Source of the DNA: a virus
UHGV virus genome: UHGV-0294517
Reading direction: 5' to 3' (one strand)
Length of the DNA stretch: 37,179 bases
Shown: positions 13,797-37,152 of the stretch, piece by piece
Position numbering within the stretch: position 1 is the first letter of the stretch
Layout of the letters: each line of letters starts with the position of its first letter
Translations under genes and position numbers: made by a program
Notes under the pieces: generated by a model
Told to the model about the DNA's origin: nothing
What the model saw: only the letters and a program-made list of their open reading frames with translations
The model's database searches: none

Positions 13797-13923
13797 GTTT
13801 CCATTCTCCTTTCGCATTAGGTTGTTTAAGGTGTGTAACCATCCACCACGAATTGACTGTTTAAGGTCTCATCTACTGACCAAAAAGGCATAAAAATAAC
13901 ACATATCTCTATGTGCTAATCTC

Positions 13924-20641: not shown

Positions 20642-20714
20642 CGGGTATAGCAGGACTCGAACCTGCGACACATCGGTTAACAGCCGATTGCTCTGCCAAC
20701 TGAGCTATACACCC
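20642..20714 (-). tRNA. tRNA-Asn (anticodon GTT)
   Basis: Full cloverleaf folded by hand, 73 nt. Acceptor stem 7 bp (one G-U). D-stem GCTC/GAGC. Anticodon stem ATCGG/CCGAT with loop CTGTTAA. T-arm GCAGG-TTCGAGT-CCTGC. Discriminator G. No encoded CCA. Confidence 0.9.
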
Positions 20715-23463: not shown

Positions 23464-23629
23464 CTTTTACCTCCACTTCATTATCGTATTTCATGCACTT
23501 TCCATCCTTGTACGCTATGCATTTCTCTTTAATGCACGGATGTAACACTGGTCTGACAAAATCTCCATTCCCAATAAACATTGCTTTTACCTCTTCTTTT
23601 CCCGTTAAATCAGGGCAAAATAAAATCAT
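23456..23629 (-). CDS. Cys-rich mini-protein (57 aa)
   Basis: ATG overlaps the YopX stop (GGAGGTGGAGTGATGA). Four Cys. Confidence 0.45.
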   Translation of the reverse strand: MILFCPDLTGKEEVKAMFIGNGDFVRPVLHPCIKEKCIAYKDGKCMKYDNEVEVKDE

Positions 23630-24075
23630 CACTCCACCTCCAACAGCTCTGGATTGTCAAAAATGTTTCCGATAACTTCCGTTCTATTTGGATTCCGATT
23701 ATATTTAAAAACATCGTTATTGGTGCATTTTTTATTTCCTCGTCCACATACTGCCCATGATCCCCTCCATTCGCTCCAAAACACAGCACCTACACGATAT
23801 TTTATCTCTTCGCCATCTTTTAAAAACGGACTTCCATCATAGTCATAACTATATCTGAGAATATCATTCTCCCAGATCTTCTTATCGTTTTTGTCGGTAA
23901 GTCCGGTGTACTGGCATAAAGTACTTGGAGCAATCTCGCATTTTAGTAATATATCTGGTAATTCTTTGCTAATTTTGTGTATTTCCACTTTTCCAGAAGG
24001 ATATGCAACAACATACCCTTCCACCCATTCTCCATTATCTTTTCTCTTTGCTTTAAAAAGTATTTCTCTGTTCAT
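23629..24075 (-). CDS. YopX-family phage protein
   Basis: N-terminal MNREILFKAKRKDNGEWVEGY and C-terminal IGNIFDNPELLEVE are family hallmarks. Start chosen at M9 of the track ORF (GGGAGAAAGAG RBS). Confidence 0.8.
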   Translation of the reverse strand: MNREILFKAKRKDNGEWVEGYVVAYPSGKVEIHKISKELPDILLKCEIAPSTLCQYTGLTDKNDKKIWENDILRYSYDYDGSPFLKDGEEIKYRVGAVFWSEWRGSWAVCGRGNKKCTNNDVFKYNRNPNRTEVIGNIFDNPELLEVE

Positions 24076-24077
24076 AA

Positions 24078-24233
24078 TTACTCTTTCTCCCATGACCAAT
24101 TAACCTGTTCCATAACCATATCTCTCATAGCTTCTTCGATTTCCTCATCAGTTACATCATCACCAAACTCTTCTTCAAATGTCATATTTGTTCCAGCAAA
24201 ACCATAATTTGCCTCCGCTTTTACTTTAATCAT
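24078..24233 (-). CDS. small acidic protein (51 aa)
   Basis: GGAGGGTGGAAGA-ATG. ATGA-coupled to the Lar-like gene. Confidence 0.5.
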   Translation of the reverse strand: MIKVKAEANYGFAGTNMTFEEEFGDDVTDEEIEEAMRDMVMEQVNWSWEKE

Positions 24234-24409
24234 TCTTCCACCCTCCTGTTCCATTTCCCTATAGCAGTTGTTTCTAAAGCACATCTTCGCGTTGCGACTC
24301 CGCATTCTTCGCAGTACACGAAAGCTGATATAACTTTTTCGTCAAATCCATAATGGATTTTCATTGTCGCTTCTCCACCACAAAACGGACATTTCTTTAA
24401 TTCTCCCAT
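24230..24409 (-). CDS. Lar-family restriction alleviation protein (zinc ribbon)
   Basis: MGELKKCPFCGGEATMK...VYCEECGVATRRCALETTAIGKWNRR matches the Lar-family pattern (CPFCGG ... C..CG ... AI..WNRR). ATG 24409 preferred over the GTG at 24418 (GGAG 8 nt upstream). Confidence 0.7.
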   Translation of the reverse strand: MGELKKCPFCGGEATMKIHYGFDEKVISAFVYCEECGVATRRCALETTAIGKWNRRVEE

Positions 24410-24424
24410 GTTACTCACTCCAAT

Positions 24425-24922
24425 CTAATTACGCATTCCTAATCTTCTACAAACAGTGTTATACCCACAGTCTAGTTTTTCAGCGATTTGATTGATTGTT
24501 AATCCCTTATTTCTAAGAAAAATCACATCTTCTTTTGCAACATCACTTCTTGAAACAATATGCTTCATCCTATCTCCAAAACTTCTTTTATATTCTTCTG
24601 AAACATATTGAACTAAATTATGTTCTTTCGTGTGTAATGATTTTTTAATTACTTGAAGATTAGAAATATTATTATTTAATTTATCTCCATCAATATGGTG
24701 AACATGAATTTCTGAACCAAAATTGAATCCAACAATATGTTTACCAATTATCCTGTGTACCGACACTTTGTCATGCTTTATCGAAATTCCAGCATACCCA
24801 CGATAAAGATAAATTTTATATTCCTCTTTAGGTGTAATATTTCTTCTACTGCATTCTTCTTCTATTGCTTTTTCTAAAATTGAATAATCTACTATGCAGT
24901 TACATGCGTTTTCAAATTTCAT
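24425..24922 (-). CDS. HNH endonuclease with C-terminal HTH (free-standing homing-endonuclease-like); AT-rich gene
   Basis: HNH motif VHHIDGDKLNNNISNLQVI...H. C-terminal GLTINQIAEKLDCGYNTVCRRL. By eye the locus is markedly AT-richer than flanking DNA. GGAGGTTTAA-ATG RBS. Confidence 0.8.
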   Translation of the reverse strand: MKFENACNCIVDYSILEKAIEEECSRRNITPKEEYKIYLYRGYAGISIKHDKVSVHRIIGKHIVGFNFGSEIHVHHIDGDKLNNNISNLQVIKKSLHTKEHNLVQYVSEEYKRSFGDRMKHIVSRSDVAKEDVIFLRNKGLTINQIAEKLDCGYNTVCRRLGMRN

Positions 24923-25289
24923 TTAAACCTCCGAAATCTAATCTCTGGCCGCACTTCAGACAGCATTCGTGCTCTTCTGCATGTCCATCAATAAAACATA
25001 TTGACTCTCTGCAACTTGGGCAAACGAAATAACCTAATTCATAGTCTACTTCTTCTGGCTTCTTCGCCGTATCACGCTCTTTCAGTTCCTGCATCTGCTC
25101 CAGCTGCTTTGCGCAATTGTTATATTGGTTCAAAATATCGCACACAAACCGTCCCATCTTGCACTCTGCGCATTTATCTTCCAGTTGCTCTCCGTTTAAC
25201 TGATCTGGATACTTGCACAGGTTGTCGCAGATATGCTCCATCATTTCCGTTGTGATCCCATCCATCCATGTTTCTTCTGTTTTCGCCAT
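24912..25289 (-). CDS. Cys-rich hypothetical protein (125 aa; multiple CxxC pairs)
   Basis: TAGGAGGAATGACTA-ATG RBS. CDNLC, CAECKMGRFVC, CPSCRESIC, CCLKCG. Confidence 0.6.
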   Translation of the reverse strand: MAKTEETWMDGITTEMMEHICDNLCKYPDQLNGEQLEDKCAECKMGRFVCDILNQYNNCAKQLEQMQELKERDTAKKPEEVDYELGYFVCPSCRESICFIDGHAEEHECCLKCGQRLDFGGLNEI

Positions 25290-31267: not shown

Positions 31268-31981
31268 TTATGCTGCGTTTAAAAACTTATTTACAAAATA
31301 CTGTTGCCCTTTACCTGTCACTTTTGGCGTGCGGTTAATCTTATTGCACCCGTTTCCATCGATATGTACGGATTCTTTAATCTCAAACAATCCCATGTCC
31401 ATGCTTCTCTGTGTTGGTAAGTTCCAGTCTGTTCCTTTTCTCTTAATCAGATATCCGTTTTCACGCATCCAACCAAACAATCTCTGCGCTCCAATATTTA
31501 CACCATTCTGACGCAAGATTTTAGCCAAATCGCCGACAAGAATAGAAGTGTTAGCTGTTGTAATAGCCTGTCCAAGCACTGCGTGCGGCTTCATTTCCTC
31601 AATCTGTGCTGTCTGCTCTTCAATGGTCTTCTGCGCTTCCAGAACTGCCAGTGCAAGAAGTTCTTTACCCTGCGGAACGTGCTCTTTGATGATATTTTCC
31701 ATCTCATGAAACCGTTTGATGTATTTTGCTGTGAACTCCGTCCCTTTGACTCCTGTGAGTTTGTGGGCGATAAATTCGCAGCCCTCTTTTGTGATTAAAT
31801 AGCACGGGTATTCTTTTCCGCGACGCTTATATGTAGATTCACGGAAGAAATCTGACGGCTCAAAATTGAGCTGTGAAAATTCTTCTAAATACCCTCTTAT
31901 GTCTCTGATGATGTTCTTGTGTTCCTTTCCAACCATTTCAGCCACTTCTCGGCTATCTAATTTTTGCTGCAATTTGTTCAA
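31268..31981 (-). CDS. phage antirepressor: Rha-type N-terminal regulatory domain plus C-terminal KilAC/Ant domain
   Basis: N-terminal SREVAEMVGKEHKNIIRDIRG (Rha-like). C-terminal AVLGQAITTANTSILVGDLAKILRQNGVNIGAQRLFGWMRENGYL (KilAC-like). Confidence 0.8.
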   Translation of the reverse strand: MNKLQQKLDSREVAEMVGKEHKNIIRDIRGYLEEFSQLNFEPSDFFRESTYKRRGKEYPCYLITKEGCEFIAHKLTGVKGTEFTAKYIKRFHEMENIIKEHVPQGKELLALAVLEAQKTIEEQTAQIEEMKPHAVLGQAITTANTSILVGDLAKILRQNGVNIGAQRLFGWMRENGYLIKRKGTDWNLPTQRSMDMGLFEIKESVHIDGNGCNKINRTPKVTGKGQQYFVNKFLNAA

Positions 31982-32051
31982 TACCTTTTACCTCCTATTC
32001 TTTCATTGCCGTCGTAACCTCCGTGGCGGGATTGTTTTATTTGTTGCAACA

Positions 32052-32060
32052 TGGTAAAAT
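32052..32060 (+). promoter_or_regulatory. extended -10 promoter element TGgTAAAAT for the opposite-strand accessory operon
   Basis: TG at 32052-53 and TAAAAT at 32055-60, about 26 nt upstream of ATG 32087. Weak -35 (TTGTTT at 32032-37). AGGAGG at 32069-74. Confidence 0.4.
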
Positions 32061-32086
32061 CCATTTAAAGGAGGTTTACCATAATT

Positions 32087-32473
32087 ATGTTTTGGACTAC
32101 TTTTAGTCGAATATGCGACATCCTAGGATTTATAAGCTTTTTCTTATCTATCGGTATTCTGAAAAAAGTTTACGCAAAAGCCGAAAGTCAGAGAGAATCT
32201 TACAAAAATGAACGAGAAGAGTTGCTCTATGCCCTCATTGCGTTGCGGCAAAACATTTGGGACGACGGATTGTTTACATTAAGCATCCAAGATAAATTGC
32301 AGAGCAAAATATACGAATTTCAAATAAAATACTCGTTAATATCTTCGATTCGTTGTTCATTCCATTTATATAGATGTTTGCATCTTCTGAAATCCGAAAT
32401 AACCGAGTCTAGCAAAAGAAAAATACGGCAAGATCTCAACTTTTTAATAGCACGCTTAAATAAAAAGGAGTAA
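32087..32473 (+). CDS. accessory gene A: small protein with an N-terminal TM helix (128 aa), unknown family
   Basis: AGGAGG RBS. Hydrophobic ICDILGFISFFLSIGIL. Noticeably AT-rich codon usage. Opposite strand to the surrounding phage genes. Confidence 0.65.
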   Translation: MFWTTFSRICDILGFISFFLSIGILKKVYAKAESQRESYKNEREELLYALIALRQNIWDDGLFTLSIQDKLQSKIYEFQIKYSLISSIRCSFHLYRCLHLLKSEITESSKRKIRQDLNFLIARLNKKE

Positions 32474-32477
32474 ACAA

Positions 32478-32906
32478 ATGGAAAGAGAAAAAATATCTAC
32501 ATTTATCGAAAAAGTTTTCGAGAAAACACATTCAGAACAACTTTATTGGTCTGTAATCGACAAAAAGGATAATCTGTACAAGCCAACTTCGATTGAAGAA
32601 AATTGTCCGTTTTATTCTTCTAACGACTTTCACGAATTAGATAATCGTTACAGCTATTTTTCCAAATATAAAAATGGTTACATTCTGCTACTCGCTTATC
32701 GCGATAATAAAAATATTCCTTGTCCTATTCCGCCAGATAAATGCCTATTTTCTTTACGCATGCAGGATGATAGCAGTCGTTTCTCCACCGAAATTACAAA
32801 CAGCTCTATCACTGATGATCACATTCAATTAACTCGCTTATTCAATCTTGTCGAAGAGAAATCAAACCGAGTTAAATTTTTGATTAACGACTTCCTCAAT
32901 AGTTGA
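32478..32906 (+). CDS. accessory gene B: soluble protein (142 aa), unknown family
   Basis: AAAAGGAG RBS 5-9 nt upstream. 4-nt gap after gene A (same operon). AT-rich. Followed by a strong terminator. Confidence 0.65.
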   Translation: MEREKISTFIEKVFEKTHSEQLYWSVIDKKDNLYKPTSIEENCPFYSSNDFHELDNRYSYFSKYKNGYILLLAYRDNKNIPCPIPPDKCLFSLRMQDDSSRFSTEITNSSITDDHIQLTRLFNLVEEKSNRVKFLINDFLNS

Positions 32907-33359
32907 TATTCCGTCATTCTTTATCGTGCCAACCTCTTTATCTTTGAGGTTGGCAATTTTGCTTTCCGCATCTTTCAACACAATAAGTTCCAATCTCTTC
33001 ACTCTTCTTTCAAGCTCATCTCTCTGCCTTATTTGAGATTCCCAATACCATCGTGAAATCCACATATCATTTTCCTCCTTCCTTATATTCTGTCCTCTGC
33101 ATCTTCCGGGCTTGGAACCGGCTTCGGCTGCATTACAGTGCCAGAATGCGTCCGGCGGTTTATCAGAGCTGTTGTCATTTTCTTCAAGCCCAAGATCAAT
33201 CAACATATCATTGAATTGATTGGAAATCTTTAAAATAAATTTTGTTAAAATAATAAGAGATTTCACATTCCCGCGATCTGATATCTTCCTGTGAGCTGAT
33301 AGCAGATTTTTTATAACTGTCTTTCTAATGTAAAATCCAAATTCTTCTTTTGTTTTCAT
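32862..33359 (-). CDS. first gene of the leftward early operon, hypothetical (165 aa), coiled-coil C-terminus
   Basis: Start at the second ATG (GTGAGGAAATGGAA-ATG). Directly downstream of the leftward promoter. Overlaps accessory gene B by 45 nt (convergent). Confidence 0.5.
   Translation of the reverse strand: MKTKEEFGFYIRKTVIKNLLSAHRKISDRGNVKSLIILTKFILKISNQFNDMLIDLGLEENDNSSDKPPDAFWHCNAAEAGSKPGRCRGQNIRKEENDMWISRWYWESQIRQRDELERRVKRLELIVLKDAESKIANLKDKEVGTIKNDGISTIEEVVNQKFNSV
32926..32965 (+). terminator. rho-independent terminator of the accessory operon
   Basis: Perfect 9-bp stem GCCAACCTC/GAGGTTGGC, 9-nt loop, then AATTTTGCTTT. It lies within the 3' coding end of the convergent minus-strand gene. 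Confidence 0.65.
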
Positions 33360-33413: not shown

Positions 33414-33442
33414 ATTGTACGTCGGTTAATCAACTTTGTCAA
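33414..33442 (-). promoter_or_regulatory. leftward early promoter TTGACA-17 bp-TACAAT
   Basis: On the minus strand, TTGACA at 33442-33437 and TACAAT at 33419-33414. Direct repeat TTGTACG x2 (33404-10, 33415-21) overlaps the -10. Confidence 0.55.
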
Positions 33443-33450
33443 TACCTTTT

Positions 33451-33475: not shown

Positions 33476-33504
33476 TTGACATTTATCTCTCTGTAGTTTA
33501 TAAT
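33476..33504 (+). promoter_or_regulatory. rightward promoter TTGACA-17 bp-TATAAT for the repressor gene
   Basis: TTGACA at 33476-81, TATAAT at 33499-504. AGGAGG at 33516-21, then ATG 33529. Confidence 0.65.
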
Positions 33505-33528
33505 CTACATTGAATAGGAGGTGTGCCA

Positions 33529-33921
33529 ATGAATGAGCGCATAAAAGAGCTGCGCAAGACAATAGGAATAACGCAGCAAGAACTTGCTGATAAACTTGGA
33601 TTAAAAAGAAATACGATTGCTACATATGAAATAGGAAAAGCAATTCCGAGTGATAGAGTTATTTCTGACTTATGCAATAAATACAGCGTGAACGAAGAAT
33701 GGTTAAGATCCGGAAATGGAGAAATGTTTAAACAGCCATCTGATGAAGTAGGCCACTACGTAGAAGACTTGCTTGAATACGACGGCGTCGGAAATCCTTT
33801 TTACGATATTATTATAGAAATGATGAAGAAATATCAGGAAATGGATGAGAAGTCAAAACTTGTTATAAGAGAGTATTTTAAAAGCGTAGGATCTGGATTG
33901 AATAAAAAAGGGGAAGACTAA
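33529..33921 (+). CDS. XRE-family HTH repressor (candidate lysogeny repressor, 130 aa; no S24 peptidase domain seen)
   Basis: IKELRKTIGITQQELADKLGLKRNTIATYEIGKAIP is a classic XRE HTH. Divergent from the early operon. Textbook promoter and RBS. Confidence 0.75.
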   Translation: MNERIKELRKTIGITQQELADKLGLKRNTIATYEIGKAIPSDRVISDLCNKYSVNEEWLRSGNGEMFKQPSDEVGHYVEDLLEYDGVGNPFYDIIIEMMKKYQEMDEKSKLVIREYFKSVGSGLNKKGED

Positions 33922-34556: not shown

Positions 34557-35582
34557 ATGGGATTTCGTTTCAGAAAAAGTTTTAAAATTGCTCCCGGTAT
34601 AAAGTTTAATCTTAACAAGAATAGCCATAGCTTCACGTTTGGTGGAAAAGGAATTCACTACACTGTTAATTCTGATGGAAAACGGACAAAAAGCTTTGGA
34701 ATTCCAGGGAGCGGACTGTATTACACAGAAACCAAAAACGGAAAAACTAAAGAAAACAAGGGGAAAACAATGAGTAAAGCATCGAATAAGAGTGGTGGTG
34801 GATGCCTTAGTGTTATTGCATTGCTGATAATGCTCTCTATTGCACTTGTAGTGTATTCTTTTTTATGGATACCAGCGATACCGGCATTGATATACTGTGT
34901 TGTATCCAAAAAATTCCGGCCATACAGGATCAGGAATACTGTGATATGCTCGATTGTGTTTGCAACATCTCTAATTATCTTTATATGGCTTGGATCTCCG
35001 TCTGAATTGAACTCTATATCTGCAGAGTGGGGGAAAGAAGAATTTAATATCGGAGATGTAACGGAGGTGAAAATTACTCCAAGCCCGTCGGACGCAAAAA
35101 TCGAAAGCTTGGAATTATCCGAAAATAATATCGCAGATCTCGAATATAAGGACGGAAAAGCCGTCATTACATTTACGGGTTCTGGGAATGCATCACTATT
35201 TTTTACGGCGAATGGAGAAATTAAAAGCAGTTCGAAAACTATTACCGTTATAGATCCGGAAGAAGAAGCGAGAATAAAAGCCGAGGAAGAAGAACGGATT
35301 AGGTTGGAACAGGAAGCTCAAGCAGCTGAACAGGCGCGTATCGAGCAAGAACAGGCTGCGGCTGCTGAACAGGAAAGGATTGCACAAGAGCAAGCTGCAG
35401 CGCAAGCAGCACAAGAGCGGGCTGCACAGCAAAGCCAAGATGACCCCATCGTGTATATAACAAACACTGGGGCAAAGTATCATAGCGCTGGATGCAGAAC
35501 TTTGAAATCTAAGATAGAAAAACATCTGTCTGAGGTACGCGGAGTTTATGAACCGTGCGGCATTTGCCATCCACCACAATAA
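34557..35582 (+). CDS. membrane protein: N-terminal DUF4236 domain, two TM helices, Ig-like/beta region, E/Q/A-rich coiled coil, and a C-terminal Ada-like Cys/His zinc-binding motif
   Basis: MGFRFRKSFKIAPGIKFNLNK...GIPGSGLYYTE is the canonical DUF4236 N-terminus. TM segments LSVIALLIMLSIALVVYSFLWI and ICSIVFATSLIIFIWL. C-terminal TGAKYHSAGCRTLKS...LSEVRGVYEPCGICHP resembles the Ada N-terminal zinc-ribbon pattern. Confidence 0.75.
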   Translation: MGFRFRKSFKIAPGIKFNLNKNSHSFTFGGKGIHYTVNSDGKRTKSFGIPGSGLYYTETKNGKTKENKGKTMSKASNKSGGGCLSVIALLIMLSIALVVYSFLWIPAIPALIYCVVSKKFRPYRIRNTVICSIVFATSLIIFIWLGSPSELNSISAEWGKEEFNIGDVTEVKITPSPSDAKIESLELSENNIADLEYKDGKAVITFTGSGNASLFFTANGEIKSSSKTITVIDPEEEARIKAEEEERIRLEQEAQAAEQARIEQEQAAAAEQERIAQEQAAAQAAQERAAQQSQDDPIVYITNTGAKYHSAGCRTLKSKIEKHLSEVRGVYEPCGICHPPQ

Positions 35583-35757
35583 AATAAAAACCGCCCCTGC
35601 GCCAACAGAGACGGTATACATATCCGAAGATATGCTATTGAAATCCACGAATATTGTATCATCTTCGGAGCAGTCACGCAAGCGGAACATTTGTTTTGCG
35701 CTGGCTGTTATTTTTGTGCCAATTTTAAATATATTTTACAAAAGGAGAGTGATGCAA

Positions 35758-37152
35758 ATGCCAGAAAAAATACTGCGGTGTGCCATATACATCCGCGTCT
35801 CCACATTTGAGCAGAGCGTACATGGCAAGTCTCTGCAAGCACAGAAAGAATGCCTGGAGCAATACGCAACAGACAACAATATGTCTATAGTAGGCGTCTA
35901 TGCGGACGAGGGAAAGACTGCCAGAAAAGAATTGAAGAAAAGAAAAGCCATACACGCTCTTGTAGAGGACGTAAAAAGGGATAAAATTGATGTGATAATT
36001 TTCTGGAGACTCGACAGATGGTTTCGAAATCTTTCTGATTTTTATAAGGTGCAAGATGTGCTTGATGATCATGGTGTTCGCTGGATTTCCGTATCAGAGC
36101 CCGGTATAAACATGGAGACAAGAGATGGACGATTGCAGTTAAATGTAGTGCTGTCGATCGGTCAAAACGAAGTAGACACCACATCCGAGCGAATTAAATT
36201 TGTGAATGAAGCATCTATAAGACAGAAAAAGCTAATATTTGGAGATGCAAATATGCCTTTTGGTTATAAAACAGGTGTTGTAGATGGAAAGAAATGCATG
36301 GTTAAAGATTCGGAAACAGAACACATGGTGGAAGATTTTTTTGAATATTTTAGAAATCATAACTCCAAGAAGGGCGCTATCCGGTACATGCAGGAAACCT
36401 ATGGAATTGATTTTAGCTATGGCATGTTACGGACGATGTTATCCAGCGAATTTTATAAAGGGACGTACAGAGGATACCCTTATTGTCCAGCATACCTGTC
36501 AGAAAAAGAATGGGATGAGATGCAAACTATATCGAAAAGAAATATTAAAAACACGCCGTCTGGTAGAATATACCTATTTACAGGTTTGATGCGCTGTCCT
36601 GTGTGCGGACAGAAATTAGTTGGCACCGGATGCTCATCAATTATCAACCGTAAAACCGGAGAAAAAAGAACATACTGCTACTACCGTTGCAACAGAGCGC
36701 TTATTGATCATATTTGCACGTATAGGCATAGGGTAAGCCAGAACCTTATCGAAAAATATCTGCTCGAAAATCTTGAAAGAGAGTACGAAAAGTATAAGGT
36801 CCGCACCAACCAGATCAGCGAAGAGTTAAAAAAGCAAAAGAAAGCGAAAGATCCGAAAAAGCTTAGAAAAGAAATGGAACGATTAAATATATTATTTCAA
36901 AAAGGGCGGATCTCTTACGATTACTACGATAAGGAGTACCAAAGATTGGAGAGAGAATATTCCGCTTCTGCTGCTTTTTGCGAGGAAGAAGAGACGAGAA
37001 ACCTGCATTATGTAGAAGAACTATTAAAAACTGACTTTCGCCAGATGTATGATTCGCTGTCTTTGGAAAATAGACGTTCTTTTTGGAGATCTACAATACA
37101 GGAAATTTATCTAAACGAAGACAATACGATTAAAGGTGTTGATTTTATTTAG
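35758..37152 (+). CDS. large serine recombinase (phage integrase)
   Basis: N-terminal resolvase catalytic domain AIYIRVSTFEQ...(Ser nucleophile)...FWRLDRWFRN. Recombinase domain. Zinc ribbon CPVCGQKLVGTGC...CYYRCN. C-terminal coiled coil. Start could be ATG 35752 or 35758 (AAGGAGAG RBS); the track ORF begins upstream at 35548. Confidence 0.9.
   Translation: MPEKILRCAIYIRVSTFEQSVHGKSLQAQKECLEQYATDNNMSIVGVYADEGKTARKELKKRKAIHALVEDVKRDKIDVIIFWRLDRWFRNLSDFYKVQDVLDDHGVRWISVSEPGINMETRDGRLQLNVVLSIGQNEVDTTSERIKFVNEASIRQKKLIFGDANMPFGYKTGVVDGKKCMVKDSETEHMVEDFFEYFRNHNSKKGAIRYMQETYGIDFSYGMLRTMLSSEFYKGTYRGYPYCPAYLSEKEWDEMQTISKRNIKNTPSGRIYLFTGLMRCPVCGQKLVGTGCSSIINRKTGEKRTYCYYRCNRALIDHICTYRHRVSQNLIEKYLLENLEREYEKYKVRTNQISEELKKQKKAKDPKKLRKEMERLNILFQKGRISYDYYDKEYQRLEREYSASAAFCEEEETRNLHYVEELLKTDFRQMYDSLSLENRRSFWRSTIQEIYLNEDNTIKGVDFI

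Follow-up and report, generated by a model that had tools for sequence, protein, structure and literature searches.

What are two plus-strand genes doing in the middle of an early operon that is otherwise read from the minus strand? The question is raised by the virus genome UHGV-0294517, analysed here as one stretch of 37,179 nucleotides (hereafter the window), in which two adjacent small genes, termed here gA and gB, run against the early genes on either side of them. Sequence comparisons make it very probable, as one joint claim, that gA-gB is an autonomous two-gene transcription unit, read in the direction of the cI and integrase genes and against the early lytic operon; that it combines with the convergent early gene gC into a conserved module of three genes (hereafter the triad), which in temperate phages of the Mediterraneibacter gnavus type is one of at least eight alternative cargos; and that the hot spot holding these cargos is bounded by a twister-like ribozyme and a ribosome-binding site (RBS) on one side and, on the opposite side, by a junction element with a hairpin and a -35 sequence beside an antirepressor gene. 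The window is a temperate siphophage or prophage of Mediterraneibacter (Ruminococcus) gnavus, and gA-gB is accessory cargo in lysogeny orientation, located at a hot spot of the prophage, unnamed and more conserved than was assumed in an earlier note on this DNA, made by a model from the letters and a list of reading frames. Coordinates of all features are collected in Table 1.

The gA-gB transcription unit

The earlier note had described two plus-strand genes inside a minus-strand early operon, more AT-rich than the DNA around them, provided with their own extended -10 promoter and with a perfect-stem terminator that lies within the overlapping 3' end of a convergent early gene. Our analysis bears out this description. 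A survey of open reading frames (ORFs) confirmed gA and gB on the plus strand, and from position ~1.9 kb to 33365 every other sizeable ORF that is not a shadow of another lies on the minus strand. The ratio of nonsynonymous to synonymous substitution rates (dN/dS) is 0.09-0.29 for gA and 0.09-0.16 for gB, hence both are under purifying selection and are real genes; chance ORFs are ruled out by these values together with the deep homology described below. The guanine-plus-cytosine (GC) content of the cassette is 0.337, compared with 0.416 for the whole window and 0.393 for the flanks (+-3 kb), a modest gap (5.7-8 points) that places the cassette within the lowest 1% of 820-bp windows. Comparably low values are found elsewhere, namely in the lysogeny module at 33-35 kb (0.36) and in a stretch near 24 kb (0.33). 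The latter, at 23900-25200, covers small ORFs at 23629-25289 and is on the same strand as the operon that surrounds it.

Upstream of gA, the putative extended -10 sequence TGGTAAAAT is separated by a 17-nt spacer from a -35-like TTGTTT at 32032-32037, and is followed by a gA RBS (AGGAGG at 32069-32074). A promoter scan by consensus returned 11 sites against 11.6 expected, i.e. the chance level in this DNA. The support for this promoter comes from comparison of sequences: the 9-mer TG(G/A)TAAAAT stands 25-35 nt before the gA start in seven of eight lineages, in which the upstream DNA is otherwise unrelated. The RBS of gB (AAGGAG, 32465-32470) is located inside the end of gA and the two genes are separated by a gap of only 4 nt, so that their translation is probably coupled; in distant lineages (L018/L021) gA and gB overlap by 8 nt.

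At the other end of the unit, gC (with its own RBS: GGAGG, 8 nt, ATG) converges on gB, and the 3' ends of the two genes overlap by 45 nt (32862-32906). The predicted intrinsic terminator of gA-gB comprises the arms TGCCAACCTC (32927-32936) and GAGGTTGGCA (32946-32955), which pair into a perfect 10-bp stem with a 9-nt loop, followed by ATTTTGCTTT. This structure folds with -20 kcal/mol (z = -4.9), a value reached by none of 200 shuffled sequences; it is outside our terminator scan, in which the loop limit was 8. A hairpin followed by a T-tract is found 8-44 nt after the gB stop codon, and always inside gC, in all seven lineages tested, and the hairpins of the different lineages belong to two unrelated sequence types. 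A U-tract is lacking on the minus strand, so that termination is unidirectional: judging from its sequence, it should stop gA-gB transcripts and let early transcripts through.

Exchange at the junction and conservation of the triad

Relatives of this locus were found by searching viral contigs with the antirepressor of the window and with gC. In L041, L045 and L057 a match of 91.5-98% extends from 33406 or 33394 down to 33073-33040, and in the same three contigs as well as in L047 and L049 homology resumes at 32042 and runs leftward at 78-91%. Thus the comparison of related phages that the earlier note had proposed, for presence or absence of the cassette at the same junction, gave a positive answer: these five contigs and the cultured phage RG-TP1 share the flanks and carry another cargo in between. 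Because the left boundary of the exchange is exactly the RBS of gC, gC is exchanged together with gA-gB.

The side of the exchange next to the antirepressor gene is marked by a conserved junction element, within which the 22-mer CGTAACCTCCGTGGCGGGATTG (32013-32034) is embedded. The hairpin in this element (32009-32029) is conserved in sequence, and its stability is unexceptional on either strand (z about 0). At least eight different cargos follow this 22-mer in different phages: gA-gB; a gene for an 85-aa (amino acid) protein; a 59-aa ORF; an 83-aa ORF together with genes for DUF2321 (zinc-ribbon) and DUF2513 proteins; a gene for a 268-aa protein with transmembrane (TM) and coiled-coil regions; a gene for a DUF2513 protein; a 103-aa ORF; and a 57-aa ORF. 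The alternatives to gA-gB other than the 85-aa protein are carried by contigs L036/L037, L058/L061, L062, L068, L069 and L033. None of the alternative cargos convincingly matches the PADLOC models, and hhalign comparison of the gB and gA profiles with the DUF2513, 103-aa and 268-aa proteins revealed no relationship. By sequence comparison, the junction is a moron-type cargo hot spot with a shared junction element that bears a putative promoter.

The 85-aa cargo, a Cys-rich protein (MPEYYERSDFMRRCNSPFNG...CAYCMPEKN) with no match in Pfam or PADLOC, is present in L041 (4174-4431), L045, L047, L057 and RG-TP1 (PQ571303, 30120-30377). In the cultured RG-TP1 it corresponds to gp49, located between gp48 and the antirepressor (Ant) gp50, and its label there, "3-hydroxyacyl-CoA dehydrogenase", looks like a mis-annotation. 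Its gene converges on and overlaps a different early gene, whose product ends with ...YPLFFSGMQ. A Cys motif similar to that of the 85-aa protein (..TGAKYHSAGC...CGICHPP) ends the DUF4236 protein encoded in the window.

The opposite edge of the hot spot lies between orfX and gC. The 167-aa ORF at 33365-32862 (minus strand), which the earlier note had taken for the convergent early gene, is a composite, in which orfX continues in frame into gC, with no stop codon between them, through the sequence of a ribozyme candidate; in cassette-less phages orfX is 97-98% conserved and has its own stop codon, and in all other loci gC is a separate gene. The ribozyme candidate marks the hot spot's left edge and is conserved there. 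It scores 46.4 bits (E 1.6e-9) and covers the model in full, from 1 to 68; lack of a P3 stem keeps it under the gathering score of 67.2. The core is present, with the UAA cleavage site, P1, P2, P4 and the CCAAGCCC loop. Among 21 related loci we found 11 variants, including 79-80-nt forms that do have the P3 stem, and one compensatory change in P4 (CCCG..CGGG in L066), variation that is too small for statistics. The candidate is absent from the distant lineages. If it cleaves, the orfX message would be left without a stop codon. Bacterial twister ribozymes occur near phage genes for a reason that is unexplained (PMC6765202), and the hot spot provides a concrete genomic context for this link.

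All cargos behind the 22-mer are encoded on the strand opposite to the early operon, which raises the possibility that convergent transcription itself is the function, with the junction promoter insulating the antirepressor gene and the genes downstream of it from leaky early transcription in lysogens, and with the coding content incidental. The common -35/hairpin element, in combination with differing -10 sequences and genes, and the unidirectional terminator agree with such an arrangement. We regard it as very unlikely, because the strong purifying selection and deep conservation of the gA, gB and gC proteins indicate that the proteins themselves are selected, and the downstream early genes in distant lineages are not antirepressors.

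How deep this conservation goes became apparent from the relatives of gB. Word-indexed searches returned close relatives only, and phmmer was then run exhaustively on 1.84 billion cluster representatives, which yielded 46 representatives at E<=1e-3, ~40 of them full-length (~140 aa) and 25-46% identical. In 34 of 34 distinct gB-carrying contigs gA is located directly upstream of gB and a homologue of gC (MW[IV][SP][RK].W..., 56-96 aa by ORF call) is convergent to it, wherever the contig allows a view, with gB/gC overlaps of 11-45 nt. These triad-bearing contigs represent ~12 diverged lineages (25-46% identity), whose integrases are of the tyrosine or the serine type and whose replication modules are unrelated. 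In lineages other than the M. gnavus group, a Cro-like helix-turn-helix (HTH) gene comes directly after the triad, and then a divergent cI-like gene, an ImmA peptidase gene and an integrase gene. The GC content of the cassette is 4-9 points under that of its flanks in nine of nine lineages and tracks the GC content of each phage. Since the offset persists in all nine, low GC is an inherent trait of the module and does not point to a recent arrival; a recent foreign insertion is ruled out by the persistent offset together with the conserved triad.

These results alter the origin that the earlier note had proposed for the cassette. An insertion into a pre-existing operon that clipped one of its genes does not fit, since gC belongs to the exchanged module and the overlap with its embedded terminator is retained in ~12 lineages. 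The proposal of a horizontally acquired moron stands in part. A moron, in the Hendrix/Juhala definition derived from lambdoid phages, is an extra transcription unit between conserved genes, and gA-gB resembles one on all four points, i.e. its own promoter, its own terminator, deviating base composition and variable presence among homologous phages. What does not survive is low GC as a sign of acquisition, given its recurrence in all nine lineages, and gA-gB differs from a moron in being kept as a three-gene block with gC in ~12 lineages, in a fixed position and with persistently low GC. As to the converse case considered in the note, that of ordinary early proteins conserved in syntenic position, this holds for the position, which is conserved, but not for the proteins, which match none of the known families of early proteins.

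Inactivated copies of the module exist as well. In L004 (8001-8425) gB contains a 1-nt frameshift after codon 78; the module is otherwise 100% identical to that of L005-L007, and gA is intact and 100% identical to the copy in the window. In L002 (8001-13501) and L003, which come from two independent samples, gA is split by an inversion of ~5.3 kb, which breaks gA after ...ACATTTGGGAT at one end and at the other end lies ~290 bp upstream of the gene for the serine integrase. The inverted DNA contains an insertion sequence (rve) as well, and the inversion may be a recombinase-mediated event at a pseudo-site. Truncated forms of gA occur in P0010 and P0011. The existence of inactivated gA and gB copies fits a dispensable accessory function.

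The fixed position of the triad, two genes away from the divergent cI/cro promoters in every diverged lineage despite 25-46% identity, invites a different interpretation, in which the triad belongs to the regulatory core of the lysis-lysogeny switch and is not accessory cargo. Here gA would sequester gB at the membrane or release it, thereby tuning the repressor, the antirepressor or early transcription, and the gA-gB transcript, which would overlap the 3' end of gC, would control gC much as cII is controlled by lambda oop or ant by P22 sar. The conserved 3' overlap of gB with gC and the conserved terminator inside gC agree with this interpretation, and gC co-varies with the cargo, the 85-aa cargo having the other overlapping early-gene tail mentioned above; in M. 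gnavus phages, moreover, the module stands directly upstream of the antirepressor gene. The oop and sar RNAs are antisense transcripts, each overlapping an early regulatory gene in its 3' or 5' part. The gA-gB transcript would likewise end inside an early gene near the switch (with ~95 nt of overlap with gC) and directly upstream of an antirepressor gene; in contrast to these RNAs it would be an mRNA for two conserved proteins, and its antisense effect is predicted. A core role in the switch seems unlikely to us, as close viable relatives without gA-gB carry unrelated cargo at this place (e.g. RG-TP1 and the phiRg series), prophages that are intact in other respects retain inactivated copies, and domain-library scans detected no DNA- or RNA-binding domain in either gA or gB.

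The two proteins and their possible role

As the earlier note had it, a small protein anchored in the membrane by its N-terminus is followed by a soluble partner. We found one TM segment in gA, at residues 7-25 (Kyte-Doolittle 19-residue mean of 1.77, and 2.06-2.39 in the homologues), and no hydrophobic segment in gB. The AlphaFold (AF2) model of gA, with a predicted local distance difference test (pLDDT) score of 85.4, comprises a long N-terminal helix (TM segment and stalk) and a four-helix bundle. Since a cluster of K/R residues follows the TM helix, we infer an N-out/C-in topology, with the bundle in the cytoplasm. Residues Y39, R43, A52, W58, D60, Y82, C90, H93, H99, A122, K127 and E128 are invariant in the gA family (alignment A7). 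The gB family (alignment A5) is characterized by an N-terminal helix with the motif FIxKAIxKTK..L.W, a beta-rich middle part with the motifs SY.A.YK.G..LLL and SLRxQD..S.Y..EI.NS, and C-terminal helices with the motif L.RLYNL and an almost invariant end, ...DFLNS. Searches of PDB with sequence profiles returned nothing below E 0.3 for either protein, and nothing consistent emerged from scans of 6-9 gA relatives against Pfam, PADLOC and NCBIfam or of 41 gB relatives against Pfam, PHROGs and PADLOC.

One gA-like protein, from L015 (5600-5995), shows a weak match to SLATT_6 (Pfam E 1.4e-3; 19.2 bits in NCBIfam, where the cutoff is 100) that spans the TM helix and the next two helices. This link is unconfirmed and concerns only one of nine members of the gA family. 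The PADLOC models of the CBASS "4TM" and "2TM" effectors are matched by one gA relative each. Apart from the L015 match (E about 1e-3), gA differs from the SLATT effectors (PF18169, "SMODS and SLOG-associating 2TM effector domain 6"): the match is far under the cutoff, gA has one TM segment and not two, and no gene for a nucleotide-signalling partner is found nearby.

These matches bear on the possibility that gA-gB is an addiction pair of the toxin-antitoxin kind, composed of a membrane protein and a soluble neutraliser, which would stabilise the prophage or arrest growth. The two genes are small and apparently translationally coupled, one of the products is membrane-anchored, pseudogenised copies are fairly frequent, and SLATT_6, to which the L015 protein is weakly similar, is pore-forming. 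On the other side, the intact gA beside the frameshifted gB in L004 is hard to square with a gA toxin that needs gB, a single TM segment with a 100-aa soluble bundle resembles neither the short toxins of type I nor the SLATT effectors with their two TM helices, and the isolated SLATT match is as weak as described above. Nor did Pfam, NCBIfam or PHROG domains reveal a recognisable toxin fold or an antitoxin-type DNA-binding domain in gA or gB. Taken together, we find an addiction pair improbable.

The explanation that we favour, tentatively, is that of a lysogen-expressed, membrane-associated module that is silenced by early transcription. In the lysogen, the early promoter would be repressed and the constitutive-looking extended -10 promoter would express gA and gB in coupled amounts; gA would be inserted N-out/C-in, and its cytoplasmic bundle would hold or control soluble gB at the membrane. 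Upon induction, early transcription would cross the whole gA-gB unit in the antisense direction, in which the terminator poses no barrier, and collision at the promoter together with full-length antisense RNA would shut the unit off. The product of gC would be made at the same moment and may be a counter-partner at the protein level. The most likely role would be a benefit for the lysogen at the membrane, namely exclusion or abortive infection of superinfecting phages; it is plausible on the architecture, with doubt prevailing. The full version of this proposal, in which the triad would be an undescribed three-gene immunity-region module of Lachnospiraceae prophages for lysogen-expressed superinfection exclusion or abortion, with its own off-switch through antisense position and possibly through gC, is rather unlikely as a whole.

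Known systems provide precedents for the logic of such a module. Lambda RexA/RexB and mycobacteriophage Sbash gp30/gp31 are pairs of a prophage-expressed membrane protein and a cytoplasmic partner that mediate abortive infection. Similarly to gA-gB, each is encoded by two genes in or beside the immunity region, in lysogeny orientation, with one membrane and one soluble product. The likeness is one of logic only, as our comparisons revealed no similarity of sequence or profile. With one TM segment, against four in RexB, gA is no multi-pass channel partner; gA-gB also differs from RexAB in having its own promoter and in lying apart from cI, with gC, orfX and the switch in between, i.e. it is not co-transcribed with the repressor. 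Superinfection exclusion proteins of the Sie2009 and Ltp type, from lactococcal and streptococcal prophages, are encoded by single genes between the repressor and integrase genes. They resemble gA in being small, encoded by AT-rich DNA, N-terminally membrane-anchored and, as proposed for gA, expressed from the prophage, and differ in that gA-gB consists of two genes antisense within an early operon; no homology was detected with Pfam or PHROGs.

Several observations weigh against an exclusion or defence module expressed in the lysogen. First, gA and gB match no family in Pfam, PHROGs, PADLOC or NCBIfam, and thus no defence, exclusion or toxin family; the earlier note had recognised neither family, and both are indeed uncharacterised in these libraries. 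The search of PADLOC defence models that it had suggested provided no support: in PADLOC-DB v2.0.0 the proteins of the window have no match at E<=1, and 41 gB and 6 gA relatives gave only scattered matches of single members, with E>=2e-4. Second, the gA fold is a generic helical bundle, for which fold searches retrieved no more than other such bundles and gut-virome proteins without characterisation; the AlphaFold model of gB, based on an alignment of three sequences, is unusable (pLDDT 33.5), and the gB alignment contains no conserved set of catalytic-looking residues. Third, lysogenic expression of gA-gB is deduced from orientation and promoter sequence only. Finally, the triad always occupies the same position, beside the switch in diverged lineages, and we found it in no plasmid, deposited phage or other context (in tblastn searches, 50,697 deposited phages contained no match to gA, to gB or to two distant relatives of gB, and PLSDB plasmids none to gB), so that it looks more like a component of the life cycle than like mobile defence cargo.

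Cultured M. gnavus phages without the cassette exist (PMC10072058; RG-TP1), and the defence hypothesis is therefore directly testable. The cassette is missing from phiRgPS6, phiRg507T2/2, phiRg507T2/3, phiRg519T2, phiRgIBDN1, phiRM10 and RG-TP1. M. gnavus is a prevalent human gut bacterium linked with inflammatory bowel disease. Two protein families that are absent from all libraries searched, and that occur in a fixed triad of many Lachnospiraceae prophages, are candidates for a host-protecting or switch-modulating function, and the hot spot, with its at least eight alternatives, is a defined place from which lysogen-expressed cargo of gut phages could be harvested.

Setting of the module in the window

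The structural genes of the window are 94% identical in nucleotide sequence to those of Ruminococcus phage RG-TP1. Proteins identical to gA and gB are encoded on 349-379 public contigs, including M. gnavus chromosomes of 3.0-3.7 Mb, where they are annotated as hypothetical only. Leftward from 33365 the order of the minus-strand genes is orfX, gC, (the gA-gB site), the antirepressor gene, a gene for a YqaJ exonuclease, and others; of the early genes downstream of the module, the antirepressor gene comes first, and it is divergent from gA.

Table 1. Features of the locus and its surroundings, in coordinates of the window
Feature	Position	Strand	Remarks
Exchangeable module (gA + gB + gC)	32043-33072		1030 bp; ~630 bp of unrelated DNA in relatives with 78-98% identical flanks
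gA	32087-32473	+	ORF, 128 aa
gB	32478-32906	+	ORF, 142 aa
gC	33065-32862	-	67-aa early-operon gene, MWISRWYW..., coiled-coil-like
Conserved junction element	32009-32037	+	Hairpin, 22-mer, -35-like TTGTTT
Putative extended -10 of gA-gB	32052-32060	+	TGGTAAAAT
Predicted intrinsic terminator of gA-gB	32927-32965	+	Within gC coding sequence
Twister-P1-like self-cleaving ribozyme candidate	33139-33089	-	Rfam RF03160; in early-operon transcript, 12 nt before gC RBS
orfX	33365-33073	-	Unnamed ORF upstream of gC
Antirepressor (Rha N-terminal domain + KilAC/ANT domain)	31268-31981	-	PF03374 6e-33, PF09669 2.5e-28, phrog_63
Predicted early promoter of switch	33442-33414	-	11/12 consensus positions
Predicted cI promoter of switch	33476-33504	+	Divergent from early promoter; 12/12 consensus positions
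cI-like HTH repressor	33523-33921	+	
DUF4236 membrane protein	34557-35582		Right end of window
Serine integrase	35548-37152	+	Right end of window

We looked for operators common to the switch region and the gA promoter and found nothing convincing. A 20-nt direct repeat, 85% identical, is present at 31970-31989, in the region of the start codon and RBS of the antirepressor gene, and at 33431-33450, in the -35 region of the early promoter (copies CAATTTGTTCAATACCTTTT and CAACTTTGTCAATACCTTTT), which may reflect chance or a regulatory site common to both. In the late region we also found a tRNA gene (20642-20714, minus strand, 70 bits) and a GP20-b cis-regulatory RNA motif (13818-13881, minus strand), whose score of 44.9 bits exceeds the gathering score.

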